DNA of 64,000 nucleotides from contig JBBAAR010000008.1 of assembly GCA_041658185.1 (NCBI GenBank), positions 3,723 to 67,722 on the forward strand, given 5' to 3'. A program made the translations under genes and the position numbers. Below are positions 3,183-64,000 of this stretch, in pieces. This stretch comes from Elusimicrobiota bacterium. GTDB lineage: Bacteria > Elusimicrobiota > UBA8919. The number at the start of each line of letters is the position of its first letter. The first letter of the stretch is position 1. The notes beneath the pieces were generated by a model. It made no database searches. It saw only the letters and a list, made by a program, of their open reading frames with translations, and was not told where the DNA came from.

Positions 3183-3995
3183 TTAATCTATATGATGTTC
3201 CAAATGTAAATGCGGGTGAACGTGAATTTTATTTTTATGCATATGGCTGTGAATATGAATGAGGTTATTGTCCCGAAGCAACTGTTCGTCTTTTAGAATT
3301 TCATCCGGTTTGCCGGATTTGATTATTTTTTTTTCACGACTGAAGACATAAACCGTATCCGATATTTCCTCAACGATATGCATATCATGGGTGGAGGTAA
3401 TGATTGTTTTACCGGCTTTATTTGCCTGAAGTAGCAAATTTATAATGTGTCTTGTCGTTAAAGGATCAAGCCCGGAAGAAGGCTCATCCAGGATAAGGAC
3501 ATCCGGATTTATCATCAATACCGAGGCAATGGCAACTTTTCGTTTTTCGCCTATGCTTAACTGGTGGGGCGACCTATTCAACAAGTCCGCAATATCCAAT
3601 AGATTGACAAGTTCATACAGCCGTTTTTGAATCTCCTCTTTTTCAACTCCGAAATGCAGCGGCCCGAAAACAATATCCTCCTTTACCGTCGGACAAAACA
3701 ACTGGACGTCGGAATTCTGAAAAACCAGCCCTACTTTCTTTCTAAAATTTTTTGAGAAATCCTCGTCGTTAAAATCATTTTCCTTGAATCCTTTACCAAA
3801 AACCTTGATAGCGCCTTTATCGGGGAAAATGAGTCCGTCAAGCATATGTAAAAGCGTGGATTTCCCGCAACCGTTCGCACCGATGAGAGTTATTTTTTCT
3901 CCCTGCCTGATATTTATATCTATACCGCATAGTGCAGGAAATTTTCCGAGATACGAAAAATGCACATCCTTTAATTCAAAAATTAGATTATCCAT
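3183..3995 (-). CDS. cbiO: ECF/cobalt-nickel transporter ATPase (CbiO/NikO-like) with a His-rich C-terminal tail
   Basis: Walker A 'GANGCGKST', ABC signature 'LSIGEKRKV', Walker B 'ILDEP'. C-terminal tail 'HIHSHMHKNKIHVHPHLHLEHHID'. Confidence 0.85.
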   Translation of the reverse strand: MDNLIFELKDVHFSYLGKFPALCGIDINIRQGEKITLIGANGCGKSTLLHMLDGLIFPDKGAIKVFGKGFKENDFNDEDFSKNFRKKVGLVFQNSDVQLFCPTVKEDIVFGPLHFGVEKEEIQKRLYELVNLLDIADLLNRSPHQLSIGEKRKVAIASVLMINPDVLILDEPSSGLDPLTTRHIINLLLQANKAGKTIITSTHDMHIVEEISDTVYVFSREKKIIKSGKPDEILKDEQLLRDNNLIHIHSHMHKNKIHVHPHLHLEHHID

Positions 3996-9813: not shown

Positions 9814-9832
9814 ATTTCTACCTTTTTATTCA

Positions 9833-9945
9833 CGGAGCGAGCAAGAAATTTCTGAAGAGCCTCAATTTACGACTTATTCGTTCCAGGAATAAATTGCAGA
9901 GCGAGTTCTGACGAGCGTCTCAAAGAAATTTGCTTGCGAGCGACT
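9833..9945 (+). repeat. MITE-like ~113-bp repeat element, copy A (GAGCGA-GCAAGAAATTT ... AAATTTGCTTGC-GAGCGA)
   Basis: ~90% identical to the reverse complement of 63088-63198. 11-bp imperfect terminal inverted repeats GCAAGAAATTT/AAATTTGCTTGC flanked by GAGCGA. Confidence 0.7.
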
Positions 9946-10363
9946 ATTCTCCGATGATTTTTACCAAAACTTCCCTTTTCCGAGGGCGGTTGTCCATATC
10001 AACGAAAATTATCTGTTGCCAGACGCCCAAAACCATTTTGCCGTTATCAACCGGAACGGTCAACGAGGGTCCGAGAAGCGACGCTCTTAAATGCGAGTGG
10101 GCGTTACTGTCGGAATGCGTCTTGTTATGCCCGTAGTCGCCGGCTTCAGGCGCAAGTTTTTTCAGTAAGTCCTGTAAATCGGAAACCAGACCCGGTTCGT
10201 ATTCTATCGTAGTAATAGCGCCCGTCGCACCGGCAATAAAAACATTCAAGATGCCGTTTTTTATTTTTGATTTTTCCAAAATCTTTTTAAGTTCCGGCGT
10301 AATATCAACTATATCGCAGTTGCCTTTCGTTTCAAAACCAATTTTATCGGTAAATATTTTCAT
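9944..10363 (-). CDS. yjbQ: YjbQ/UPF0047 family protein (secondary thiamine-phosphate synthase-like)
   Basis: 139 aa. 'DITPEL...HSHLRASLLGPSLTVPV...G.WQQI.F.D.D' matches the YjbQ family. Confidence 0.8.
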   Translation of the reverse strand: MKIFTDKIGFETKGNCDIVDITPELKKILEKSKIKNGILNVFIAGATGAITTIEYEPGLVSDLQDLLKKLAPEAGDYGHNKTHSDSNAHSHLRASLLGPSLTVPVDNGKMVLGVWQQIIFVDMDNRPRKREVLVKIIGE

Positions 10364-33251: not shown

Positions 33252-33329
33252 ATTTATTATTTTCCTTTGCCTATCAATGTATTAGATGATACAAAAATTA
33301 TTTAAAATGTCAAGAAAAAAATGCCAGAT

Positions 33330-33345
33330 TGTTTCACGTGAAACA
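33330..33345. promoter_or_regulatory. 16-bp perfect palindrome TGTTTCACGTGAAACA (copy 1)
   Basis: Exact palindrome with a CACGTG core. ~80 bp upstream of the 167-aa gene start and just downstream of the rimO stop. Confidence 0.7.
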
Positions 33346-33346
33346 T

Positions 33347-34630: not shown

Positions 34631-34683
34631 ATTGCAGAGCGAGTTCTAACGAGTGTCTCAAAGAAATTTGTTCCCGAGCGACC
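34631..34683 (+). repeat. Half copy (right arm) of the MITE-like repeat element, copy B
   Basis: TTGCAGAGCGAGTTCTAACGAGTGTCTCAAAGAAATTTGTTCCCGAGCGAC matches the right half of 9833-9945 at ~90%. Confidence 0.65.
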
Positions 34684-34685
34684 TT

Positions 34686-36512
34686 TCATTGTTTCACGTG
34701 AAACATTTTAAGAGCCGGCTTCGCTTCGCCGGTTTTATCAAAAAGGGCAAAGTCCGTCCACATTTTCTCCGTGTACCATTCCGGGCTCCAGTAGAAAATA
34801 CCCGCTATGTTTTTGTTTCTTGCGCATCCGTCAATAAAATCCGAAATCCACCGTTTTTGTCCGTCAACGGTCAACGGATAACCGACGACCGGCTTGTTCC
34901 ACGCGGCGAATTGTCCTTCAATTTTTCCGGAAGAAGGGTAAGCAAACTCGCAAATAATTACCGGTTTTTTAATCTCCGAAACCAGCAATTCCACAAATTT
35001 TTCCAAGTCCTTAAATGTGTTATGCGGGCTTAAGCCGGAAGAGGGAAAATAGGATAAACCGAGTTCATCAATCTGCACTCCCGCCGTTCTCATTGTTTTA
35101 TAAAAATTTCCACAGAATTCCGGATTCCACCATTGGGTAAGATGCAGTATAAATTTCGCCTGCGGGTTAACCTTTTTTATTCCTTCCTGCGCTGCTTTGA
35201 TGAGTTCCGCCTCGTTGTTCCAGATATTTTTTTTCATCCAGTTGATATTAAAACGCACGCCCCAATCCTCGGCGAACTCTCCGCATATACCGAAGTCAAT
35301 TTCATTTCCTATTTCATATGTGTCAATTTTTATACCTGCCTGTTCAAAAGCCGTTGCGGTATTTTCAGAGTATTTTTTTACTTCTTTGATTTTTTCGCCG
35401 AAAGATAAATTTTTCCATTTTTCCGGGACAGGTTGCTTTACATAATCAGCCCAAGTATCGCTTAAAAAAACAACAAGGTAGGGCTTTAAGCCAGCCCGCA
35501 CGGCCTCTTTTGCAATTTTAATGGAATAATCCAGTCCACTATGCCCGTTTTTATTTGTCCATAACCTTATTCTGAACCAATTAAACCCGTTTTCAGAGAG
35601 AATTTGAAATATATTTTTTGTTTTTCCGTTAATTTTCCAATTTATGCCCTGCTCCGACATATCTAACGAATAATTCGCATCTGCGCCGATTTTGAACTCC
35701 CGTTCCGAATCACCCCAGATAGCGGAAGCCCATTCCGGATGGTCAATAAACGGGTTGCGGTTTCCCTGAATTTGAAATATCGCTTCATTTCTGTCGTTTT
35801 CCTTTTGACTGACAGGGTCGCTTAAATGCCATTTTAGAAGCGTTTTTATTGCCCAGTCGTTAAAATTCCCGCCGTTTTCCGTTACCATCTCGCTTTTTGA
35901 ACAATTAAGCGGGTCCTCGCCCGTCATATATCTTACGACAAAGTAAAAATATCCTCTCGCAAAATCGCCCTTAAATTCATCCGACGGCTCAAATACGTCG
36001 CCCTCAAAACCAAGTCCTTCCCGCGATTTTCCTACTTTTGAAATGCCATACTGCTGATAACTTTTTCCGACCTCGCCCAATGGTTTAACCCCTTTTTGTC
36101 CGTTTGTATGGGCGTCCGCCAAAATAACATTAAAGAGGTCGGAATGCGCGGGCGTATCTTTCCCGCCGCCCCACCAATCTTTAGGCCAGGAATGTTCGCG
36201 GGTTAAAAAACCACCGACCTCGCCGGTTTTTCCGGATTGAACGGACTCAAAAGAGTCAAAGTTATATCCCGAATACATACACCACGGTTTGCCTTCCGGC
36301 GTTGCGTCGGTTTTTTCAAAATATTTCCAAAGTTCCGAGTAATCCGGGACGGAATGGTCTTTTATTATATTATGCAACGATACCCTTAATTCATTCTCGA
36401 TTTTTCCTTTTGCGGAGTCATAGTATCCTTCCGGCTCTTCTGAAAACAGAGAACAACAGGAAAAAACTAAAATGGCCGCAATAATTATATTCTTTCTTTT
36501 TTTCCGTAGCAT
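34686..36512 (-). CDS. Secreted fusion protein: Endonuclease I (EndA/Vvn family) N-terminal domain + glycoside hydrolase family 53 (endo-1,4-beta-galactanase-like) C-terminal domain
   Basis: N-terminus: signal peptide, then 'GFLTREHSWPKDWWGG...HSDLFNVILADAHTNGQKG' (Endonuclease_1 NREH/DLHHL-like motifs). C-terminus: 'FNWFRIRLW', 'VVFLSDTWADYVKQP', 'YEIGNEIDF' (GH53 HYSDTWAD and catalytic-Glu GNE motifs). 608 aa. Confidence 0.7.
   Translation of the reverse strand: MLRKKRKNIIIAAILVFSCCSLFSEEPEGYYDSAKGKIENELRVSLHNIIKDHSVPDYSELWKYFEKTDATPEGKPWCMYSGYNFDSFESVQSGKTGEVGGFLTREHSWPKDWWGGGKDTPAHSDLFNVILADAHTNGQKGVKPLGEVGKSYQQYGISKVGKSREGLGFEGDVFEPSDEFKGDFARGYFYFVVRYMTGEDPLNCSKSEMVTENGGNFNDWAIKTLLKWHLSDPVSQKENDRNEAIFQIQGNRNPFIDHPEWASAIWGDSEREFKIGADANYSLDMSEQGINWKINGKTKNIFQILSENGFNWFRIRLWTNKNGHSGLDYSIKIAKEAVRAGLKPYLVVFLSDTWADYVKQPVPEKWKNLSFGEKIKEVKKYSENTATAFEQAGIKIDTYEIGNEIDFGICGEFAEDWGVRFNINWMKKNIWNNEAELIKAAQEGIKKVNPQAKFILHLTQWWNPEFCGNFYKTMRTAGVQIDELGLSYFPSSGLSPHNTFKDLEKFVELLVSEIKKPVIICEFAYPSSGKIEGQFAAWNKPVVGYPLTVDGQKRWISDFIDGCARNKNIAGIFYWSPEWYTEKMWTDFALFDKTGEAKPALKMFHVKQ
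34690..34705. promoter_or_regulatory. 16-bp palindrome TGTTTCACGTGAAACA (copy 2)
   Basis: Overlaps the last codons (MFHVKQ*) of the nuclease-GH53 gene and lies ~65 bp upstream of the rimO start. Confidence 0.7.
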
Positions 36513-36526
36513 ATTATTATATTAAC

Positions 36527-36768
36527 CTTATTATTTCTCGCTGAGCGAGCAAGAAATTTGTAATCATATCGCCGAGCGAGGGAGTTGGTGAGTCGGGTTT
36601 CTCACAGGTCGGCTTACTCTTTCAGCCGACCGGGAGAGAGCACTGCATCAAGCAGAGACAGCGTTCCGACGAGACAATTCCCGTGCGACCGAAGCCGACA
36701 GGGCGGTCGGATGAGCGACCAAAGGGAGTCCCTTTAGGGGTGTTTCCGACAAATTTACTTGCGAGCGA
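36527..36768 (+). repeat. MITE-like repeat element, copy C, with the central segment replaced or expanded by a ~185-bp GC-rich structured insert
   Basis: Left arm TTTCTCGCTGAGCGAGCAAGAAATTTG and right arm AAATTTACTTGCGAGCGA match the termini of copies A and D. The interior (36561-36745) is ~60% GC, versus ~36% for the genome. Confidence 0.6.
36561..36745. ncRNA. Candidate structured ncRNA (unknown class) inside repeat copy C
   Basis: Multiple stems: GTCGGCT-N9-AGCCGAC, CGGGA...TCCCG enclosing CTGC-AUCAA-GCAG, CCGAC-AGGGCG-GTCGG, AAAGGGAGTCCCTTT. Sits in the 5' leader region of the nuclease-GH53 gene (minus strand). Confidence 0.35.
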
Positions 36769-36769
36769 T

Positions 36770-36785
36770 TGTTTCACGTGAAACA
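36770..36785. promoter_or_regulatory. 16-bp palindrome (copy 3, extended to the 20-bp ATTGTTTCACGTGAAACAAT)
   Basis: Perfect 20-bp palindrome at the 3' end of the DUF2723 gene and ~260 bp upstream of the nuclease-GH53 start. Confidence 0.7.
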
Positions 36786-36786
36786 A

Positions 36787-38529
36787 TTATCTTTCATACT
36801 CCGATTTCCGGAGAAACTCCATCTCCGCTTCTTTTTTCAAACCCGCCTGCGAAAGAATAACTCCGGCATTGACGGATGCGTCTGTATAATACGAAATCAC
36901 AGTTTTTTCATAGTAATCAAGTTGGTTTTTAGGTTTTCTAAAAGGATAGAGTTCAAAAAGGAAACTGCCGCTGCTGACCTTTTCCGCTTTTTGAATTGCA
37001 GTCGCATTTTTAATCACCCTGCAGCCCAGGCCCCGCGGGATAACATAATTTTCAAGCCCCGGATGCACGCCTTCGGTAAAAACGGGCTCTTTGTCCGATT
37101 TTTTAAGAAGCGCATCAACAGTAGAAACAGAATTTTCATTGTAAAAAATTTCGGGGTATTTCTGCTCGTATTCGGCAATCCGCCAGGGCATAAATGAACT
37201 CAGAATTACTTTTACATCCCGCCGCATTTTTTCAACATTTTGAAAATAATTAACGGTAAAAATAGGTATGTCGGCGGTCATTAAAAGATAGGAATTTTCA
37301 GGAATTGAACGGAGCAGGTTTTTACCGTAATCGTGGGCAAGAAAATTGTTCCGCTTGTCTAAATGTTGAAAATTTTGGTAAAACAGAAATCCCGGCAAAA
37401 TGAGAAAAAGCGGGGATAAAATACGGGAAAAAAGTACCTGTCCCTTTATTATATCCATAAGTCCGCCAATCCCCATACCTATTATTAAGGCAATAAAAAC
37501 AGAGGACAAAACGCAAGCCGGTTCAAGTATCACAAGTGAAAATTCATTGTTCGGCAGTCGGGAGAGTAATATAAAAAACGGTCCGGTGAACAGGAAAAAA
37601 AAGAGCATTGTTTTTCCGAACCCGCCTTGAAGGTCTCTAAAACAGAAAAAAACACCGCTCGCCGTCAAAATAATGCCGAGCCGTCCGAATTGGTTCCTAA
37701 ACAATTGCCAAAACATTTTTGCAGAATCTTTAAGCGTATTTCCGTGCGCCGCGCCGGAATGCCTGCTTGAAAGTTTGACCGTGCCGTAGTCGGTCCTCAT
37801 CAAAACATTCGCAAAACTGCTTATTGTCTGCGGATTGCCCCAGTTGTTTAACGGCTGTTGCTTCGCCCTTATAGGAAGGAAAATATAAACGGAAAAGCCG
37901 AGAAGAAAAAACAGCGAGAGGGAGAGCAATTTTACCTTTTTACGCTTTAATAAATAATAAATTATTCCTGGGAGTAAAAGCACAAGCGTATGGTGGTTTC
38001 CGAGACCCAAACCGAATAAGAAAGCGGCGAGGAGCGTGTAGTTGCCGGGCTTGTTCGGCTTAGTAGCAAGTAACAAATAAACTATCAAAATGGCGAAAAG
38101 GGCGTTCATTGAGTATATTTCCGCCAAAATGGATTGCCGCCAAAAAGCAGTGGAAAACGCCAGCGTTAACGCAGATATAAAGGCAGTGAAGGAAAGCGAA
38201 AAAAAGTGAAAAAAAGTGTTTGACGAACTGCTTTCATTCAATCTCGCCCACTTCCGTTCACTTCTTTTCACTATTAAATAGACCATCATAACGGTTAATG
38301 AAGATGTAAAAGCGGAAAAAATGTTCAAACGGTAGCCGATGTTTCCGAAAGGAATTAGAATCGTCCATATTTTGCCGAGAATCACATAAACGGGATACCC
38401 CGGCGGATGTGCTATTCCCAGAGTAAAAGCAGAAGCGGTTAAATCACCTGCGTCCCTGAAAGGCGAAACGGAGGGGTAAAGAGTATAAAGATATGTTGAA
38501 AAACTGATTAAAAACAGAAAAATAGCCAT
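36787..38529 (-). CDS. DUF2723-family (TMEM260-like) GT-C-fold membrane glycosyltransferase-like protein
   Basis: 580 aa. N-terminal 'YPSVSPFRDAGDLTASAFTLGIAHPPGYPVYVILGKIWTILIPFGNIGYRLN' is ~70% identical to the same segment of 61204..63084. Multi-TM. C-terminal soluble region. Confidence 0.65.
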   Translation of the reverse strand: MAIFLFLISFSTYLYTLYPSVSPFRDAGDLTASAFTLGIAHPPGYPVYVILGKIWTILIPFGNIGYRLNIFSAFTSSLTVMMVYLIVKRSERKWARLNESSSSNTFFHFFSLSFTAFISALTLAFSTAFWRQSILAEIYSMNALFAILIVYLLLATKPNKPGNYTLLAAFLFGLGLGNHHTLVLLLPGIIYYLLKRKKVKLLSLSLFFLLGFSVYIFLPIRAKQQPLNNWGNPQTISSFANVLMRTDYGTVKLSSRHSGAAHGNTLKDSAKMFWQLFRNQFGRLGIILTASGVFFCFRDLQGGFGKTMLFFFLFTGPFFILLSRLPNNEFSLVILEPACVLSSVFIALIIGMGIGGLMDIIKGQVLFSRILSPLFLILPGFLFYQNFQHLDKRNNFLAHDYGKNLLRSIPENSYLLMTADIPIFTVNYFQNVEKMRRDVKVILSSFMPWRIAEYEQKYPEIFYNENSVSTVDALLKKSDKEPVFTEGVHPGLENYVIPRGLGCRVIKNATAIQKAEKVSSGSFLFELYPFRKPKNQLDYYEKTVISYYTDASVNAGVILSQAGLKKEAEMEFLRKSEYER

Positions 38530-38545
38530 TGTTTCACGTGAAACA
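38530..38545. promoter_or_regulatory. 16-bp palindrome TGTTTCACGTGAAACA (copy 4)
   Basis: Abuts the start codon of the DUF2723 gene (minus strand), in the divergent intergenic region with the TPR gene. Confidence 0.7.
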
Positions 38546-38907
38546 TTAAATGATTTGGTATAATTGGAGACCGTTGAAAAACCTTGTTTTTGTAGGCACG
38601 GTCTATGACCGTGCTAATATGCCATAGACGGAGTACGAACAAAGTTCGTGTCTACAATAAATATACCAAACACTTTTTCACCGGTATTATTATACAAAAA
38701 ATTTAGTTTAATTCAAGTCCTGTTGGATTAAGATTCTCTATCTAATTGGGGCAAGCCCGCCAAAAACAAAAAATCGTTCTGCATTTTTTTTGTTGTATTT
38801 TTTCAAAAATTTTGTATAATTTTTTTAGATGGAAAAAGACTTTTTCGTTAGAAAAACCGGAAAAACAGGGGAAACCAGAACCGTCCCCGTATTGCGTTGA
38901 GAAATAT

Positions 38908-47815: not shown

Positions 47816-48198
47816 TGGGTTTATCGCGGTTAAACCGTCTGACAAAATCCGATAATTTTGCGAGAATAAAAAAATCCAAACGCTGCCGGAAATTTTTATC
47901 GGGCGGTTTTGTTTTCTATATCTGCCCGAACGGAAAAAATGTTTCCCGTATGGCCGTTGTGTGTTCTTCAAAATTAGGCGACGCCTGTAAACGCAACCGC
48001 TTGAAGCGTCTCGCTCACGAGGTTTTCCGTTTCAATCATACACGGTTTCTGCAAAACGCGGACATTATTGTAATCCCGCAAAAAGAAGTTATGCCGTCGG
48101 TAAATTACCGGTATATTGAAAAACATTTTTTAGAGGCGTTTCAAAAAGCGGGGTTTCTAAGAATGGAACCACAGATGAACGCAGATGGACACAGATAA
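47815..48198 (+). CDS. rnpA: Ribonuclease P protein component
   Basis: 127 aa. 'NRLKRL' RNR-like motif. Classic rpmH-rnpA arrangement. Confidence 0.88.
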   Translation: MGLSRLNRLTKSDNFARIKKSKRCRKFLSGGFVFYICPNGKNVSRMAVVCSSKLGDACKRNRLKRLAHEVFRFNHTRFLQNADIIVIPQKEVMPSVNYRYIEKHFLEAFQKAGFLRMEPQMNADGHR

Positions 48199-48286
48199 AA
48201 GTCAGAATTAAGAATTGGGAATTATCTGCGTAAATCGGAGCCTGCCCCCGAATGATTCTATCGGGGGTTTATCTGTGCTAAAAAGA

Positions 48287-54260: not shown

Positions 54261-55298
54261 ATGAAAAAGTTCAGATTAAGTTTTTTAATTGTTTTAAGTA
54301 TTAATGTAATCCAAATTTTAAGATTATTTGCCGACGACACATACGTAGAAATTGCCGGGGGCGCCGCTAAAATTATGGATGAACACAACAGTATATCTAT
54401 GGTTTCAGAATATGTAATAATGGATATTACGAAAAGTGAATATTACACAGTTGATGCGAGTTTTGAATTTTATAATAATGGAGTTGATACTGAAACAGTG
54501 GTTGGTTTTCCACAAGTGGAATGGGTTATGAATAATGATGATTTAAAAGACGAGGAGTTTTCTAATTTTGTGTCATTCAAGACATTTATAAACGAATCCG
54601 AAGCAAAAACTGTAGTAATACCGAATTCTGAAAAAAAGACAGATGTAAAAAAATGGATAATAAAAACAGTAAAATTCCCTTCCCAAAAAGTGACAAAAAC
54701 AAGAGTAATTTATAAAGCACCTTATGGGGATGTTTCAGGTAGAACTATTTTGGCTCTTTATTTGTATGGAACCGGTGGCTCTTGGTATGGTAGTATTGGT
54801 AAAGTAATATTTGATTTAAGGTTTTCAAATGACACATGGATACAAATAGAAAATTCTAATTATTTATATCCCTTTATGTCACTATGGTGGAAAAAACGAT
54901 CAGGACAAGAGATTCCAATGGTTATTTTCAAACGTAGGAAAAATGAAATGATTTGGGAATTAAAAGATATTGAACCCCAACCGAATGATTATTTTAAAAT
55001 TTCCTTAGGAGGACATGGAAGGCATATACCTTGGGGTTACTCATTTGATTGGGATAAAAATAAACTTGATGAACCTTGTCTTGAGTTGCTGTCAATGTGG
55101 CAATTGAAAATTTTCAGGAATGAGTTTTATGCAAGACACGGAAGAATTTTCAAAGATAAAAAATTACAAGAATATTTTGAGTCACAGGATTGGTACAAGC
55201 CAAACCCAAATTTCTCTGAGAAAATGTTAAATAAAACTGAATTAGAAAATATCAAAAAAATCAAAGATTATGAAACAAAAATAGAGAAAGAAAAATAA
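54261..55298 (+). CDS. Secreted YARHG-domain protein
   Basis: Signal peptide. C-terminal 'LKIFRNEFYARHGRIFKDKKLQEYF' is the YARHG motif. Confidence 0.75.
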   Translation: MKKFRLSFLIVLSINVIQILRLFADDTYVEIAGGAAKIMDEHNSISMVSEYVIMDITKSEYYTVDASFEFYNNGVDTETVVGFPQVEWVMNNDDLKDEEFSNFVSFKTFINESEAKTVVIPNSEKKTDVKKWIIKTVKFPSQKVTKTRVIYKAPYGDVSGRTILALYLYGTGGSWYGSIGKVIFDLRFSNDTWIQIENSNYLYPFMSLWWKKRSGQEIPMVIFKRRKNEMIWELKDIEPQPNDYFKISLGGHGRHIPWGYSFDWDKNKLDEPCLELLSMWQLKIFRNEFYARHGRIFKDKKLQEYFESQDWYKPNPNFSEKMLNKTELENIKKIKDYETKIEKEK

Positions 55299-55302
55299 TT
55301 TT

Positions 55303-55336
55303 ATGTTCACATATCCGGAAAAATTTGATGTGATTG
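55303..55336 (+). repeat. Degenerate duplicate of the mnmG 5' end (copy 1; attL-like scar) heading cassette 1
   Basis: ATGTTCACATATCCGGAAAAATTTGATGTGATTG is 32/34 identical to the true mnmG start at 59150. Encodes [11 protein letters not shown] then diverges to a stop. Confidence 0.85.
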
Positions 55337-57169: not shown

Positions 57170-57183
57170 AAAAATAGATTATT

Positions 57184-57223
57184 ATGTTCACATATCCGGA
57201 AAAATTTGATGTGATTGCGGTTG
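57184..57223 (+). repeat. Degenerate duplicate of the mnmG 5' end (copy 2) heading cassette 2
   Basis: 36/40 identical to the mnmG start. Encodes [15 protein letters not shown]... then a stop after 24 codons. Confidence 0.85.
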
Positions 57224-57326: not shown

Positions 57327-58430
57327 ATGAGCAAGATAATGAGTGTTGAAGGGTTATACGGTAAGATAAGAGAAATTTTAGAAAGCGCCCGCAGTAATTC
57401 TTATCGTGCGGTAAACTTCGCAATGGTTCTGGCATATTGGAATATAGGAAGGATTATCGTTGAAGAAGAACAAAAAGGTAAAAACAAAGCGGATTATGGC
57501 ACATATCTTATAAAAGAACTTTCAAACAGGTTGCGAAAAGAATATGGCGAAGGGTTTAACGAAACGAATCTGAAATATTTTCGGCAATTTTATGTTGCCT
57601 TCCCAATAAGTCACGCGGTGCGTGACCAATCTCATATTGCTAAAAAAGGTCACGCAGTGGGTGACTTTTTCTCTGTTTTGCTGAATAAGAATCTATCTTC
57701 TAAGTTAACATGGACGCATTATCGGCTATTGCTTAAAGCGGGTAATTCATCAGCGAGAGAGTTTTATATAAACGAATGTATTGAAGGCAACTGGAGCACT
57801 CGTCAACTTGAACGGCAGATAAATTCCTTTTATTACGAACGGCTTTTGGCAAGCAAAAATAAAAAAGCGGTAGTAAAAGAAGCATTAAAAACCGCGGATA
57901 AGTTAAAGACCACTCCGAATGATGTTATCAAAGACCCATATGTTTTGGAATTTCTCGGTCTGAAAGAGAATAAAAAATACCTTGAGTTAAATATAGAAAA
58001 AGCGATTATTGACAAACTTCAGGAGTTTTTGCTTGAACTTGGAAAAGGTTTTTGTTTTGTTGCCCGCCAGCAGCGGATTTCTACAGAAAGCCAGCATTTT
58101 TACATAGACCTTGTGTTTTATAATTACATTCTGAAATGTTTTGTTTTGATTGATTTGAAAGTCGGGAAACTTACTCATCAGGATATAGGGCAGATGGATA
58201 TGTATGTTCGCTTGTATGAAGACAAAATAAAACCGGAAGGACATAATCCAACAATAGGGATAATTCTTTGCGCCGAAAAAGACGAGACGGTAGTCAAATA
58301 TTCCGTATTAAAGGAAAACAAACGATTATTCGCTTCAAAGTATAAATTATATCTTCCCACTGAGGCAGAATTGAAAAAAGAACTTGAAAAAGAAAGGAAT
58401 CTTATTGAAACAGAGCAAAAATTAAAATAG
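57327..58430 (+). CDS. DUF1016/YhcG-like PD-(D/E)xK nuclease-fold protein
   Basis: C-terminal 'IDLVFYNYILKCFVLIDLKVGKL' is a PD-(D/E)xK core. N-terminal YhcG-like domain. 367 aa. Confidence 0.7.
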   Translation: MSKIMSVEGLYGKIREILESARSNSYRAVNFAMVLAYWNIGRIIVEEEQKGKNKADYGTYLIKELSNRLRKEYGEGFNETNLKYFRQFYVAFPISHAVRDQSHIAKKGHAVGDFFSVLLNKNLSSKLTWTHYRLLLKAGNSSAREFYINECIEGNWSTRQLERQINSFYYERLLASKNKKAVVKEALKTADKLKTTPNDVIKDPYVLEFLGLKENKKYLELNIEKAIIDKLQEFLLELGKGFCFVARQQRISTESQHFYIDLVFYNYILKCFVLIDLKVGKLTHQDIGQMDMYVRLYEDKIKPEGHNPTIGIILCAEKDETVVKYSVLKENKRLFASKYKLYLPTEAELKKELEKERNLIETEQKLK

Positions 58431-58433
58431 GAT

Positions 58434-58472
58434 TCGTTCGGCACTTATCCGGAAAAATTTGATGTGATTGCG
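58434..58472 (+). repeat. Degenerate duplicate of the mnmG 5' end (copy 3, lacks ATG) heading cassette 3
   Basis: GTTCGGCACTTATCCGGAAAAATTTGATGTGATTGCGG matches the mnmG start with a 3-nt insertion and 2 mismatches. Confidence 0.8.
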
Positions 58473-58509: not shown

Positions 58510-59142
58510 ATGAAAATAGAATACGTATCGTTTAAAAATCGGGCTGCCCGTTCCGGGTACATCCGCGACAGGTTTTCACACTTGTTAGCCGGAAAAATAC
58601 TTGATGTCGGGTGCGATATGGCGGTTTTAAAAAAATTATTGCCGGATGCCGAATACACCGGCGTAGACATTGCGGGCGCTCCCGATATTAAATTGGATTT
58701 GGAAAGCATTGACAAACTTCCATTTAACGACGGAACTTTTGATTGCGTGATTTGCTCAGACGTATTGGAACACCTTGATAATTTACATCATATTTTTGAT
58801 GAATTGGTCCGGGTTGCAAAAAATCATATTATTATTTCGCTGCCGAATAACTGGGTCAATGCAAGATTGCCGATAAGCAGGGGAAAAGGTTCGTTCGGGC
58901 ACTATGGGTTGCCTGCCGTTCCACCGCCCGACCGCCACAAATGGTTTTTCGGACTTTCCGAGGCGATAAATTTTATAAAGAAAAAATCTGAAACGTCGGC
59001 GGTTACCGTTGCTGAAATGTATATAAACGAAAAACCGAGACCGGTACTCTTGAGGTCTGCGCTGAAATTGATGAATGCTTCACGGGAACGTTATCTGAAC
59101 CGCTATGCGCATACCGTGTGGTTCGTCCTCAAAAAGAAATAG
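58510..59142 (+). CDS. Class I SAM-dependent methyltransferase (substrate unknown)
   Basis: '[11 protein letters not shown]' (motif I), '[12 protein letters not shown]' (post-I/II). ~210 aa. Confidence 0.7.
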
Positions 59143-59149
59143 GAAAATT

Positions 59150-60907
59150 ATGTTCACATATCCTGAAAAATTTGACGTGATTGTGGTAGGGGCGGGGCAT
59201 GCGGGTTGCGAGGCAGCTTTGAGTTCAGCGAGAATGGGGTTGAAAACTCTGCTTCTTACCATAAATGCGGATACCGTTGCCCAGATGTCCTGCAATACTG
59301 CAATCGGCGGCGTCGCGAAGGGACAAATCGTCAGAGAAATAGATGCCCTCGGCGGTGAAATGGCAAAAATCGCTGATAAAACCGGTTTGCAGTTCCGTAT
59401 ACTCAACAAATCAAAAGGACCAGCGGTGCAGTCACCGAGAGCACAATGCGACAAAAAACTTTATCAGTTCACAATGAAGCATACGATTGAAAAGCAAAAA
59501 AACCTGCGGTTCATTCAGGCGGAAGCGACAGAAATTTTAACCGACGGGAAAAAAGCAATCGGTATTATCACAAAACCGTCAATAAAATTTTTAGGCAGAA
59601 CCGTAATTATAACAACCGGCACATTTTTGAAAGGGCTTATCCATATCGGCGAGACAACTTTTCACTCCGGAAGAAGCGGCGAATTTGCGGCTATGCATCT
59701 TTCGGATTCACTGAAAAAACTCGGGTTTGAAATCGCACGTCTTAAAACCGGGACTCCGCCGAGAATTAACGGAAAAACGGTTGATTATTCAAAATGTATT
59801 GCACAACCCGGCGATGAACCTGCTATACCATTTTCATATTTTACAGAAAAAATAACGCAGAAACAACTTCCCTGCTGGCTCACTTATACGAATGAAAAAA
59901 CCCACAAAATTATATCGGCAAATTTTCACCGCGCGCCGCTTTTTTCAGGACAGATTAAAGGTATCGGGCCCAGATATTGTCCGTCCATTGAGGATAAAGT
60001 AAAAAAATTTCCCGAAAAGAACCGCCACCAGATTTTTCTTGAGCCGGAGGGATATGATACGGAAGAGGTCTATTGCAACGGAATTGCGACCTCGCTTCCA
60101 TATGATGTCCAATATGAAATGTTGAAAACTATAGACGGGCTGGAAAATTGTGAGATGATAAGACCCGGCTATGCGATTGAATATGATTTTTGCCAGCCGA
60201 CACAACTGAAGCCGACTCTTGAAACGAAAAATATTGAAGGTTTATTTTTTGCGGGACAGATTAACGGAACTTCCGGTTATGAGGAAGCGGCAGGTCAGGG
60301 AATAATTGCCGGAATAAATGCAGTTGCAAAAATAAAAGGTATTGAGCCGCTGATTCTTCGTCGGGATGAAGCGTACATCGGAGTTTTAATAGACGATTTG
60401 GTGACGAAAGGCGTCCTTGACCCTTACAGAATGTTCACTTCCCGTGCCGAGTATCGTCTTATTCTACGCGCCGACAATTCTGATTTGCGTTTGATGGATT
60501 ACGGTTATAAATACGGTTTGATTGACGGCGAAATTTACAAAAAGTTTCAGAAGTACAGGGAACTTGTTAAAGAAAATAATTTTGAGTTTGACGCAGATAT
60601 TTTACCGTGGACAAAAGAGAAGATTGAATATGAAATTGAAATTGAAAAAAAATATGCCGGCTACATAAAAAGACAGATTGCGGATGTTGAAAAATTCAAA
60701 AAAATTGAAAATAAAAAAATTCCGGAAAAAATTAACTATGACAAAATTCCGGGCTTATTGACGGAAAGCAGGCACAAGTTGAATCAGGTGCGTCCGGTTT
60801 CCGTCGGTCAGGCATCAAGAATTTCAGGGGTTACTCAAGCCGATTTAAGCATAATTATGATATGGCTGGAAAAGAAAAAGCGCATAAAGAGGGCAAATTA
60901 TGGATAA
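59150..60907 (+). CDS. mnmG: tRNA uridine 5-carboxymethylaminomethyl modification enzyme MnmG (GidA)
   Basis: '[24 protein letters not shown]' FAD-binding start. 'TGTPPRI'. C-terminal helical domain. Start taken at the internal Met; the ORF track starts 15 codons earlier. Confidence 0.95.
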
Positions 60908-61203: not shown

Positions 61204-63084
61204 ATGTTTTTTTTGGTTTTTAATTCCACATTTATAATTTATCTCTGCACGATGTATCCGACCATATCGCCTTATCGCGATAGCGGCGATATGATTGTTT
61301 CTGCATTTACATTGGGTATCGCCCACCCGCCGGGTTATCCGCTTTATGTTTTATTGGGAAAAATTTTTACCATTTTGATTCCGTTCGGTAACATCGCATA
61401 TAAAGTAAATTTGATGTCCGCATTTTTCGGCGCCGCGGCATGCGGGATTTTATATCTGTTGATAAAAAAAATCGGTGAGCAAATTTTTAGCGATAAAAAA
61501 CCGGTTTTGATTTTCAGTTCGTTGTTTGCAGTGTTTTTGTTTTCTTTAAGTTCATCAATGCACTCTTTAAGCATCGTTTCTGAAATGTATTCTATAAACA
61601 CCTTTTTTGCCGTTTTGATAATTTATTTATTATTTACTACTAAGCCGAGCCAGCCCGGCAACTACACGATACTCGCCGCTTTCTTATTCGGCTTGGGTCT
61701 CGGGAATCATCAAACGCTTGTACTTTTACTCCCAGGAATAACTTATTTACTGATTAAGCGGCTGGGCAAAACCTTTCTACCGTTTACCCTCTACCTTATA
61801 CCCGCCTTTCTTATCGGCTTTTCCGGCTATCTTTTTTTACCTATCCGGTCCGCACAAAATCCTACTGCAAATTGGGGCGACCCGTCGGCAAAGGTTCGAA
61901 ATTTTTACAGAGTGCTCACCCGCGCCGATTATGGCGGCGTCCGTCTTCATCCGGAGAAAAGTCCGACGGAACAGAATTTTTCAACGGTGATAAAAAATTT
62001 CGTTAATTTTTTAAACATATCTATTGAAAGTAAAAACGGCTGGGCTGTTGCGACGATTTTTTTTCTTGCCGCGGGCCTTTATTTAGCATTCAGAAAAAAA
62101 CTTTTTTGGACTTTGTTTTTATTCTGGTTTTTTTCAGGTCCGGTATTTTTTATAATTTCAAATTTACCGCTGACCGATAGAACCTCGCTTCCGATTTTGG
62201 AGCCATATCTAATAATGCCGATGATAGTTTTTACGATATTCGTTGCTTTGGGATATTTTCATGGCATTTTAAGTTTAAGCAGATTTATTGGAGATAAAAT
62301 TGTAATATTTGTGATTTCTGCCGGTATGTGCGGAATAATTTTATTTAACTTGCCGCAGTTGTCAAAACGGTATGAATTCATCGGATACGATTATTCAAAG
62401 GACTTGCTGAAAACTCTGCCGAAAAATTCGGTATTGTTTAATCCCGACGATACAACAACTTTTACCCTTAAATATCAGCAGGATTGTATCCGGAGAAGAA
62501 AGGATGTCAGATTAGCCGTTTTTTACAAAACATTGTGGGGTTACGGGCAACTTAAAAAGAAATATCCTGAAATTTTGCCGGACTATGAAATAAAATCAGG
62601 GATTGAACTTGAGGCCGTGCTTTTGTCATATAATTTTAACCGATTTCCTTTTTATTCCGATAATATAAGCAAAATTCCTCCGGACTATAAAATTACGCCA
62701 AAAGGATTTCTTTACGGCAACTCGGATATTTCATCGTCGGAAAAGATGTTTGATTTTTATGTTTTGCCGCCTCGCACTTTTGGAAAAAACAGGTTTTTCA
62801 CTAAGCAGATAATAAATTATTACTCTGCGGGATATAACAATCTGGGGCTTGTATTTAATGAAAAAAAATTATACAATAAAAGCGTTCCGCTCTTTGAAAA
62901 AGCAATTTCTGTCGACCCGTCGCTTTCTCAGGCGTATAATAATTTGGGTGTAGTGTATTGGGAAAAAATGGATTATGCAAAAGCATCCGAGTATTTTTCC
63001 CAAGCGCTTAAAAATGCTCCGAATGACGAAGGCGTAAAAAGAAACCTTTTTATTGCACAAGAAAAATTAAAGGGTAAAAAATGA
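61204..63084 (+). CDS. DUF2723-family (TMEM260-like) GT-C membrane protein with C-terminal TPRs (paralog of 36787..38529)
   Basis: 626 aa. N-terminal 'YPTISPYRDSGDMIVSAFTLGIAHPPGYPLYVLLGKIFTILIPFGNIAYKVN'. C-terminal TPRs ('AYNNLGVVYWEKMDYAKASEYFSQAL'). Confidence 0.65.
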   Translation: MFFLVFNSTFIIYLCTMYPTISPYRDSGDMIVSAFTLGIAHPPGYPLYVLLGKIFTILIPFGNIAYKVNLMSAFFGAAACGILYLLIKKIGEQIFSDKKPVLIFSSLFAVFLFSLSSSMHSLSIVSEMYSINTFFAVLIIYLLFTTKPSQPGNYTILAAFLFGLGLGNHQTLVLLLPGITYLLIKRLGKTFLPFTLYLIPAFLIGFSGYLFLPIRSAQNPTANWGDPSAKVRNFYRVLTRADYGGVRLHPEKSPTEQNFSTVIKNFVNFLNISIESKNGWAVATIFFLAAGLYLAFRKKLFWTLFLFWFFSGPVFFIISNLPLTDRTSLPILEPYLIMPMIVFTIFVALGYFHGILSLSRFIGDKIVIFVISAGMCGIILFNLPQLSKRYEFIGYDYSKDLLKTLPKNSVLFNPDDTTTFTLKYQQDCIRRRKDVRLAVFYKTLWGYGQLKKKYPEILPDYEIKSGIELEAVLLSYNFNRFPFYSDNISKIPPDYKITPKGFLYGNSDISSSEKMFDFYVLPPRTFGKNRFFTKQIINYYSAGYNNLGLVFNEKKLYNKSVPLFEKAISVDPSLSQAYNNLGVVYWEKMDYAKASEYFSQALKNAPNDEGVKRNLFIAQEKLKGKK

Positions 63085-63087
63085 AAG

Positions 63088-63198
63088 TCACTCGCAAGCA
63101 AATTTTCTTGTGACGCTCGTCAGAACTCGCTCTGCAATTTACTCCTGCAGGGCATAGGTCGTAAATTGAGGCTCTTCAAAAATTTCTTGCTTCGCTCT
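63088..63198 (-). repeat. MITE-like repeat element, copy D (inverted relative to copy A)
   Basis: The reverse complement aligns with 9833-9945 at ~90% identity across ~110 bp. Confidence 0.7.
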
Positions 63199-63217
63199 GG
63201 TAGAGAATGGTTAAAAA

Positions 63218-64000
63218 ATGAATTCGCAATCGCTGAAAGTTTTTTTAGATGGACTAAAAGTTCTCAACATAAAACTTGATAAACGGCAAATAGGACAGTT
63301 TTCAATTTATTTTGACGAACTAAAAAAGTGGAATCAAAGGTTTAATCTGATAGGTCCCGCAACGGATGAAGAAATCATTAAAAGACATTTTTTGGATTCC
63401 TTAAGCGTGCTTTCAGTTTTACCTACACTGCCCGATGCTCCCTGCTTTTTAGATATAGGCACCGGCGCAGGTTTCCCCGGCATACCCGTGAAAATTGTAT
63501 TGCCGGCAATATCGCTGACGCTTTTGGACTCATCAAAAAAGAAAACGGAATTTTTGAGGCATCTGTGCAAAAAATTAGACATAAAAGCAGAAATAATCTG
63601 TAACAGAGCGGAGAGCGTAGTCAAAATGTCCACATATCAAAGTAAATATGATTTTGTCGCCGCAAGAGCCGTAGCCAAATTGTCAACAGCGGAAGAATTG
63701 TGTCTGCCTTTTCTTAAAACCGGCGGAACTTTAATTTTGCAAACAGGAAATAAAACAGATATCAATCTGAAAAATGGAGAAATTATGGAAAAGTTTCGGC
63801 TGCCGGAAAAAATTCTGCCGGGACGAGCGGTTTTATCAATCAGAAAAAAAACCGTAGGATTTACGCTTATTGAACTTATGATAGTTGTTGCTCTCATAGG
63901 CATTCTTGCTTCTATTGCAATTCCTAAATTTGCGGAAATGATTAGGAGAACCAAACAAGGGAAAACAAAGGGCGAGTTGGGAAATTTAAGGAGTGCGATA
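63218..64000 (+). CDS. rsmG: 16S rRNA m7G527 methyltransferase RsmG (GidB), ORF continuing in frame into a type IV pilin-like N-terminus; runs off the window end
   Basis: 'FLDIGTGAGFPGIPVKI' RsmG SAM motif. No stop after the RsmG C-terminus ('...LPGRAVLSIRKK'). Reading continues through an A8 tract (63844-63851) into 'GFTLIELMIVVALIGILASIAIPKF' (class III signal/prepilin motif). Not in the ORF track because it is open to the window end. Confidence 0.8.
   Translation, partial: MNSQSLKVFLDGLKVLNIKLDKRQIGQFSIYFDELKKWNQRFNLIGPATDEEIIKRHFLDSLSVLSVLPTLPDAPCFLDIGTGAGFPGIPVKIVLPAISLTLLDSSKKKTEFLRHLCKKLDIKAEIICNRAESVVKMSTYQSKYDFVAARAVAKLSTAEELCLPFLKTGGTLILQTGNKTDINLKNGEIMEKFRLPEKILPGRAVLSIRKKTVGFTLIELMIVVALIGILASIAIPKFAEMIRRTKQGKTKGELGNLRSAI

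Follow-up and report, generated by a model that had tools for sequence, protein, structure and literature searches.

A GC-rich, highly folded island lies at 36561-36745 of a 64,000-nucleotide (nt) stretch of an Elusimicrobiota bacterium genome (contig JBBAAR010000008.1 of assembly GCA_041658185.1; this whole stretch is referred to below as the window), and the question that the locus raises is what kind of element the island is. An original prediction, made from the sequence by eye, had taken the 185-nt segment for a novel non-coding RNA (ncRNA) or a riboswitch-like leader, embedded in a repeat that resembles a miniature inverted-repeat transposable element (MITE). Our analysis indicates that the island is probably a mosaic of small non-coding dispersed repeat modules located in spacers between co-directional Elusimicrobiota genes, and that one of these modules, a 114-nt core, has a fold that is maintained through compensatory mutations.

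The GC content is 57.8% for 36561-36745 and 58.8% for the 114-nt core, against 39.0% across the window; the predicted contrast is therefore there, with less extreme figures than the approximately 60% and 36% first given. When compared with 200 dinucleotide shuffles, the region 36531-36790 folds with z = -5.1 on the plus strand and z = -4.4 on the minus strand (-3.5 and -3.1, respectively, for the 185-nt island alone in the same test). Because none of the 200 shuffles folded as well as the longer region on either strand, we conclude that the structure of the island is real and beyond chance. The island fills most of a 274-nt gap that extends from the stop of a TMEM260-like gene (36787) upstream to the ATG of an Endonuclease_1+GH53 fusion gene (36512) downstream, both on the minus strand, so that the predicted location relative to the latter gene is confirmed by the coordinates. 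This spacer is identical in two other assemblies, and the window is a replication-origin neighbourhood (with dnaN, a dnaA-sized open reading frame (ORF), NDK and rnpA). Inside the island, the gene strand shows no site resembling a terminator or a promoter. No known RNA class had been recognized in it by eye, and Rfam 15 likewise returned no match for the island at the gathering score, only tRNAs and chance-level hits being found over the window and 20 related loci; at E <= 10, nothing credible appeared in 36400-36900 or around the minimal core of locus L039 (retrieved loci carry L numbers). The Rfam models so compared include riboswitches, ribozymes, 6S, SRP, tmRNA, RNase P and the IS605-orfB and HEARO motifs.

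The conserved unit proved to be not the 185-nt segment, as first supposed, but the 114-nt core, the remainder consisting of three other repeat modules. We scanned metagenomes with a hairpin 23-mer and genomes with a degenerate core pattern. The first scan gave 32 metagenome loci, four of which (L015, L023, L030 and L033, all from one metagenome) also contain the core, and the second gave five core copies (L037-L041) in Elusimicrobia bacterium UBA4817; with the window copy, these nine homologues make ten. A covariance model built from nine copies scored all ten at 68-131 bits (116.5 bits, E = 4e-25, for the window core by cmsearch) and otherwise returned only noise in 288 kb, apart from weak matches to a repeat family that we refer to as famS. 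Copies of famS are present in L009 (145 nt), L018, L015, L038 (two copies) and L039 (3817-3936), and famS, the core and a short-form repeat are found together in the same genomes. There is weak internal similarity between famS and the core (TGAAAGCGTA) and between the short form and the core (CTCGTCAGAAC), each equalled by 4 of 500 shuffles; the earlier view that part of the island is a diverged short-repeat centre is accordingly reduced to a weak likeness (CTCGTCAGAACTCGCTCTGC versus CTCGTCGGAACGCTGTCTCTGC, with 4 of 500 shuffles scoring as high). Insertions and deletions of 1, 2, 24 and 29 nt separate the core copies and so rule out a conserved reading frame in the core. Scans of viral contigs with the core pattern and the 23-mer gave 0 matches, BLAST of the whole spacer against plasmids and phages gave no match, and a search of the literature on Elusimicrobia repeats or RNA motifs, and on the hairpin 14-mer, found nothing relevant.

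The core folds into an outer stem, P0 (AUCGC/GCGAU), followed by P1, P2 and a three-way junction that bears P3 and a P4a/P4 arm, and the minimum-free-energy structure of the window copy on the minus strand recovers these consensus helices. P1 pairs GGGAAUUGU with ACAACUCCC in the consensus and with (C)CAACUCCC in the window copy, whereas CGGGA...TCCCG, quoted originally as a stem, is not borne out as a conserved one. P2 (6 bp) is GUCGG/CCGAC in the window, GUGGG/CCCAC in L030, GCGGG/CCCGC in L037 and GCAGAAC/GUUCUGC in L038, and the P3 hairpin varies in sequence and length yet folds in all ten copies. P4a, with consensus UCWC/GWGA (UCUC/GAGA in the window), is separated by an internal loop from P4, which reads GGUCGGC-UGAAAGAGUAA-GCCGACC in the window and, across the copies, GGUCGGC/GCCGACC, GCACGGC/GCCGUGC or GCAUCGC/GCGAUGC around an 11-nt loop with consensus UGAAAGCGUAA or AGAUAGCGUAA. 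Nucleotides in the loops and the junction of the core are conserved. Other stems named in the original prediction are present in the sequence, with GGTCGGC...GCCGACC at 36608-36632, CTGC-ATCAA-GCAG, CCGAC-AGGGCG-GTCGG inside 36688-36714 and AAAGGGAGTCCCTTT inside 36715-36740.

All five helices are supported by the alignment. Standard pairs occupy 96.0% of 273 pair cells, compared to 36-47% when the 3' partners are slid by 1-3 columns, and change on both sides of a pair has occurred in 11 of the 29 core pairs. The covariation score of the core is 0.377, against 0.146 ± 0.019 in shuffles, none of 500 of which scored as high. Compensatory changes among the homologues thus show that the stems, on whose conservation the original prediction depended, are conserved. 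The copies in L040 and L041 have a rare internal insertion in common; over the 88 nt present in both they are distinguished by 7 positions, 4 of which make up two compensatory P4 pairs. On the gene strand, G.U pairs outnumber A.C pairs across the copies (11 versus 5). A candidate pseudoknot between AGCG of the P4 loop and CGCU of J3/4 was dropped, as the window, L015 and L039 copies carry uncompensated changes.

Covarying stems together with strongly conserved unpaired nucleotides (GCUCUCWCUCG in J3/4, GAWAGCGUAA in the P4 loop and AAG in J4a/2) typically mark an RNA that has a tertiary fold, and could mean that the core is a functional RNA class (a self-cleaving or processing ribozyme, a protein-binding regulator or a guide-type RNA of a mobile element) that is multi-copy only incidentally and whose flanking modules are passengers. 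Paralogues within one genome keep their pairing through double changes, several small ribozyme classes are multi-copy and repeat-associated, and since all callable neighbours of the repeats are co-oriented with them (see below), a sense RNA of the core would be made whenever the operon is read. However, the core resembles none of 4227 Rfam families, even at E <= 10; the genes downstream of it are unrelated; orthologous sites have lost the core or hold another occupant; folding of the antisense strand is no worse; and we saw no associated protein gene. We regard this explanation as doubtful. By-eye likenesses to the hammerhead (CUGANGA...GAAA), twister and pistol ribozymes were dropped, the required helices being absent.

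The island is a stack of repeats, of which the core is one. On the gene (minus) strand, the order is palindrome, AUCGC, left terminal inverted repeat (TIR), 26-nt hairpin, CCGAC hairpin, core, GGCGAT and right TIR (Table 1), with approximately 30 AT-rich bases between the right TIR and the GH53 ATG. The modules are joined at CGCTC, with one joint at CGCAC. The termini of the island are common to the three short repeats of the window, at 9823-9949, 63086-63220 and 34631-34687, which bears out the idea that it lies inside the ends of a MITE-like repeat. Over its left 77 nt, which comprise the frame end, the 26-nt hairpin and the CCGAC hairpin, the island shares 95% identity with the left part of the L009 copy of famS, and this stretch is also found in L018; the CCGAC hairpin segment is present in the famS copies of L038 (both copies), L015, L009 and L018 and absent from L030. 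The left frame TIR is absent from L030 and L003, in which ATCGC is joined directly to the hairpin module. A simpler order is seen in L030, which runs AUCGC, hairpin, core, GCGAU and right repeat; compared with it, the window is longer by two insertions, one of 25 and one of 30 nt. In L030, L039, L040 and L003, too, the core gives way to CGCTC-YRCGAT, and the right end AAATTTCTTGCT(T)CGCTC is common to window copies A and B, L009, L018, L030 and L041. TIRs are found in the frame (GCAAGYAAATTT / AAATTTCTTGC), in the core (GGGAATTGT / ACAACTCCC) and in famS, where they are 19 nt long (GGGAGCAAATTTTCCAGAC / GTCTGGATAAATTTCTCCC); the ends common to the short form, famS and the core read TCGCTC-GGGAR...YTCCC-TCGCTC or TCGCTC-GCAAG...CTTGC-TCGCTC.

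Table 1. Modules of the island, its neighbouring genes and related repeats in the window.
Feature	Position	Strand	Remarks
TMEM260-like glycosyltransferase gene	36787-38529	-	upstream neighbour of the island
18-nt perfect palindrome TTGTTTCACGTGAAACAA	36769-36786		directly after the TAA stop (36787-36789) of the TMEM260-like gene
Outer-stem 5' strand AUCGC (36764-36768), then left TIR of the frame TCGCTCGCAAGTAAATTTGTCGGAAACA	36741-36768	-	
26-nt hairpin module CCCCTAAAGGGACTCCCTTTGGTCGC	36715-36740	-	8-bp stem, ACU loop; AAAGGGAGUCCCUUU of the original prediction
CCGAC-CGCCCU-GUCGG hairpin module TCATCCGACCGCCCTGTCGGCTTCGGT	36688-36714	-	common to the famS family
Core, one copy of a ~112-nt three-way-junction repeat	36574-36687	-	114 nt here; CGCAC 5' border, CGCTC 3' border
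P4 hairpin of the core with conserved 11-nt loop	36608-36632	-	7 bp, 4 with compensatory changes across copies
Outer-stem 3' strand GGCGAT	36568-36573	-	complements AUCGC at 36764-36768
Right TIR of the frame ATGATTACAAATTTCTTGCTCGCTC	36543-36567	-	pairs with 36741-36768 in the predicted fold
Endonuclease_1+GH53 fusion gene	34686-36512	-	downstream neighbour of the island
Short-form copy A	9823-9949	-	between metallophosphoesterase and UPF0047 genes; sense strand is the gene strand
Truncated short-form copy C	34631-34687	-	between GH53 stop and RimO start
Short-form copy B	63086-63220	+	after the second TMEM260-like gene, co-oriented with that gene

The hairpin (Y)CCCTAAAGGGACTCCCTTYGGTCGC occurs as an identical 23-mer in the 32 metagenome loci (L005-L036) in unrelated contexts, its sites being 5' of the core, within the core (L040 and L041) and within famS, as well as between the tRNA genes of L025 and, in frame, in a 739-aa histidine kinase ORF (L022 2695-2717, peptide APKGTPFGRS). 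In the Elusimicrobia copies it is flanked by a CGC/TCGC direct repeat. We judge two further possibilities to be unlikely, namely that this 21-26-nt hairpin is a separate, unusually small insertion module that spread unchanged into unrelated non-coding RNAs, spacers and a histidine kinase frame of different organisms, and that a mobile repeat carries, in the core, a functional RNA of a new class (either a self-processing ribozyme that would cut operon transcripts or an RNA that would act in the mobilization of the element). A second non-coding family of ~190 nt (L007, L010-L013, L016, L017, L019, L024 and L029; e.g. L011 571-953) carries the identical 23-nt hairpin (CTAAAGGGACTCCCTTYGGTCGC) at a fixed position between imperfect ~10-nt direct repeats (AAGYGARCGSC); its hairpins are variable and apparently compensated, and it is preceded by a terminator-like hairpin. 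The rest of its sequence is unrelated to that of the core, and it occurs in other organisms, apparently as a single copy per contig. No Rfam family matches it, and its assignment as a tmRNA was rejected after ARAGORN called tRNAs only.

We tabulated 16 elements together with their neighbours, taken as ORFs that reach 90 aa or more and lie no further than about 250 nt away, and all of the called neighbour ORFs are co-oriented with their element (famS at L039 3817-3936 and the short form at L053 20748-20861 are further co-oriented copies). Where an upstream ORF was called, its end is 1-30 nt before the element or slightly overlapped by it, and the next start, where called, is 11-40 nt downstream. 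The genes downstream of the core are unrelated to one another, and encode GH53, hexulose-6-phosphate synthase and, in several unnamed ORFs, proteins with dissimilar N-termini; its upstream neighbours include genes for a P-II-like protein and an Ogg-like protein, and a small P-II-adjacent ORF also lies downstream of one copy.

Relatives were retrieved via RimO and GH53 homologues (L003, L004 and L042-L048) and via hexulose-phosphate synthase (L049-L054), and the core is absent from 13 loci of such relatives. None of the RimO/GH53 relatives contains it, and the palindrome is shared. In the closest relative of the window, L003, which is syntenic and has a 75% identical GH53, the region upstream of the GH53 orthologue holds the palindrome, the hairpin and a core remnant, GGGAATTGTCTCG joined to CTCTGCGAT, whose sequence is consistent with a deletion between two CTCG of a full core. 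In L003 3593-5584 the Endonuclease_1+GH53 gene is itself split into 100-aa and 549-aa ORFs, with the break, a frameshift or small insertion, near 3890-3935. The spacer between the Ogg and hexulose-phosphate synthase genes is occupied by the core in UBA4817, by a short-form repeat in GCA_028718185.1 and by an unrelated AT-rich palindrome in L049, L050 and L052; a clean empty site was sought among the UBA4817 relatives L049-L054, where the spacer was otherwise occupied rather than empty. The AT-rich palindrome of these three contigs (ACTTTCTCATTTAGCTAAATGATTAAATGAGAAAGT; e.g. L049 3486-3538) may be another small repeat family, and in L051 (3515-3629) an AT-rich palindrome contains an internal 62-nt insertion or duplication.

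These findings bear directly on the proposal that the island is a ligand-sensing, riboswitch-like leader that controls the Endonuclease_1+GH53 gene. In favour of this, the island is highly structured and immediately precedes the gene, strand for strand; but the same core fronts unrelated genes, it is deleted in the closest relative with the same GH53 gene, it ends 61 nt before the ATG with another repeat terminus in between, and no riboswitch family matches it. We consider such a leader extremely improbable, and a riboswitch or gene-specific leader class was rejected on the grounds that the downstream genes are functionally unrelated and the orthologous locus is not conserved. What survives of the original prediction is a structured, conserved, Rfam-free element with compensatory changes; the riboswitch-like leader and the single-copy ncRNA gene do not.

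The palindrome TTGTTTCACGTGAAACAA, which stands outside the GC-rich repeat proper, is a recurrent gene-boundary motif. It has four copies in the window (33329-33346, 34689-34706, 36769-36786 and 38529-38546) where 0 are expected, always exactly at a gene boundary and overlapping a stop or a predicted ATG (ATGTTTCACGTGAAACAATGA), and in relatives it is found in L003 (482, 2240, 3511 and 6903), L042 and L045-L048, in which RimO is 67-87% identical. The genes between palindromes vary (TMEM260/RimO, TMEM260/GH53/RimO or TMEM260/serpin/GH53-RimO), and since the palindrome is conserved at the boundaries while the enclosed genes change, it looks like a cassette boundary, recombination site or operator. 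The two TMEM260-like paralogues of the window, each with a repeat of the present family after it, are oppositely oriented (36787-38529 minus, 61204-63084 plus), and within them 37943-38121 and 61582-61760 form a 179-nt inverted repeat that is 84% complementary. A 46-nt direct repeat (...ATGTTCACATATCCGGAAAAATTTGATGTGATTG) occurs four times (55291-55336, 57172-57217, 58425-58470 and 59138-59183), spaced 0.7-1.9 kb apart in a run of plus-strand genes, and may be a shared gene start or upstream element of paralogues. Two adjacent inverted-repeat pairs (28 nt, 93%; 25 nt, 88%) lie at 844-931 and 48159-48248, the latter site just past rnpA, and may be another dispersed repeat.

Like MITEs, the modules have terminal inverted repeats and are present in many dispersed copies without coding capacity; (T)CGCTC stands on both sides of every copy, and is constant, with no matching empty site for comparison. 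An IS200/IS605 origin (of the PATE type, or as an omega-RNA) is in keeping with the fixed 5' CGCTC and the strand bias, but not with the TIR-type ends and the unlike hairpins. A by-eye likeness of the ends to attC was dropped, the orientation of GTT/AAC being reversed relative to attC.

The helices might alternatively be hairpins of DNA, the modules being non-autonomous derivatives of HUH/Y1 single-stranded DNA transposons (of the IS200/IS605 or REP/RAYT type) that insert 3' of CGCTC on one strand at the replication fork. Every module is directly preceded on its 5' side by CGCTC, a pentamer that each 3' end restores, and insertion 3' of a target by an element that ends in the same sequence would yield both this pattern and the tandem and nested mosaics. 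Moreover, the orientation of the repeats flips with the gene strand, and presumably with the direction of replication, at about 38.6 kb, near dnaA, dnaN and rnpA, so that a replication bias fits as well as a transcription bias does, and neither strand is clearly favoured energetically. Yet IS200/IS605 elements have two similar subterminal hairpins and no TIR, whereas here the ends pair and P3 does not resemble P4; a REP measures 20-40 nt and has GTAG at its 5' end, whereas the units here are 110-145 nt and have none; and the sequence examined, which consists of part-genome loci, showed neither a Y1 transposase nor TnpB. A derivation from such transposons seems to us quite unlikely.

We favour, as the more probable account, a previously undescribed family of dispersed, probably mobile, co-transcribed structured repeats that are kin in kind to REP/BIME, ERIC, BOX and Correia elements. 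The island has a modular anatomy, its modules are dispersed in multiple copies, orthologous sites are variably occupied, the repeats are co-oriented with the called genes around them and the fold is compensated. In the window, a famS or "frame" element with TIRs encloses the 26-nt hairpin module, the CCGAC hairpin and the 114-nt core. The modules may have spread as non-autonomous mobile DNA, mobilized in trans by an enzyme outside the sequence seen here, with CGCTC being either targeted or carried by them (as a landing site or as an element border); every insertion would then supply a new CGCTC landing site, so that mosaics would accumulate. The modules are predicted to be transcribed within operon mRNA, where the compact GC-rich fold, closed by the element ends, would be tolerated or useful as a putative intercistronic barrier to 3' exonucleases or a processing site, by analogy to REP, ERIC, BOX and Correia elements, and the pairing may have been kept because the fold serves as such an intercistronic structure.

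A number of points weigh against this account. The sample is small, with ten copies drawn from about three populations, and much of the covariation reflects their division into two subfamilies, many of the compensated cells deriving from few events. The antisense consensus folds slightly better than the sense consensus (-39.5 versus -36.0 kcal/mol), which conflicts with the G.U excess on the gene strand, both signals of strand being weak. Near none of the copies did we find a transposase, RAYT, TnpA/TnpB or reverse transcriptase, a weak negative given ~0.5 Mb of sequence; the 19 window ORFs scanned contain no transposase domain; and in about 0.5 Mb of loci there is no pair of separated core ends around an ORF, as an autonomous element would have. 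The flanking CGCTC is constant, so target-site duplication, preferred target and element sequence are indistinguishable, no empty site with the same flanks having been recovered. Mobility alone does not account for the compensatory changes in P2, P3 and P4, which are internal helices: a cut-and-paste MITE has no need of its interior, so that either selection at the RNA level or a single-stranded DNA intermediate is required. Finally, transcription of the repeats and an effect of them on mRNA are putative.

The resemblance to known repeats can be judged from ERIC, REP/BIME, BOX, Correia and bcr1 elements. ERIC (IRU) elements of enterobacteria are imperfect palindromes of about 127 nt, located in transcribed intergenic regions and folding into a simple long hairpin; they have size variants that arise from segments inserted at fixed internal sites, are patchily present at orthologous sites and have reported effects on mRNA stability. 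The Elusimicrobiota repeats are similarly intergenic, with ends that pair, size variants by internal insertion and patchy orthologous occupancy, but share no sequence similarity with ERIC, and the core is a three-way junction with conserved loops. Constant CGCTC borders and uniform co-orientation are likewise features found here that are not known from ERIC. REP/BIME elements of E. coli and Pseudomonas, which are mobilized by RAYT, are co-transcribed GC-rich palindromes that act as barriers to 3' exonucleases. The repeats described here are BIME-like in being extragenic, GC-rich, located in operon spacers and at operon 3' ends and assembled as mosaics of several module types; they differ in that the modules are 26-145 nt long, in one orientation and bounded by CGCTC, with no RAYT seen. 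A REP unit as such was rejected, since the repeats are 110-145 nt, lack GTAG and have a single orientation, in contrast to units of 20-40 nt with a 5' GTAG in inverted pairs.

BOX elements of Streptococcus pneumoniae (boxA, boxB and boxC) and Correia elements of Neisseria fold stably in RNA, and Correia hairpins, whose elements duplicate TA and insert in either orientation, are substrates of RNase III. Both are small modular or TIR-bounded repeats that lie beside genes and have no coding capacity, as here, but they belong to other phyla, differ in sequence and are not known to have a branched core with covarying internal helices. The bcr1 element of the Bacillus cereus group is about 155 nt, is transcribed and has a constant 5-nt direct repeat, TTTAT, that is taken to be a specific target duplication. 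The repeats described here are similarly dispersed, with a constant flanking pentamer and a predicted conserved RNA fold, but their pentamer, sequence, fold and host phylum are not those of bcr1.

Taken together, our analyses indicate that the element is real, structured and conserved, but ordinary in kind. REP, ERIC, BOX and Correia elements have been studied thoroughly in a small number of model phyla, whereas Elusimicrobiota are known almost only from metagenomes and, as far as the literature searched shows, no small structured intergenic repeat has been described there. A GC-rich structured island in an AT-rich genome may be a stack of repeat modules, which calls for caution in screens that look for riboswitches in GC-rich islands. 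The constant CGCTC joints and the 23-nt hairpin found across organisms point to an insertion mechanism, and the core, because its covariation is real and its loops are conserved, can legitimately be put forward as a candidate new Rfam family and as one that merits testing for activity as a ribozyme or in processing.

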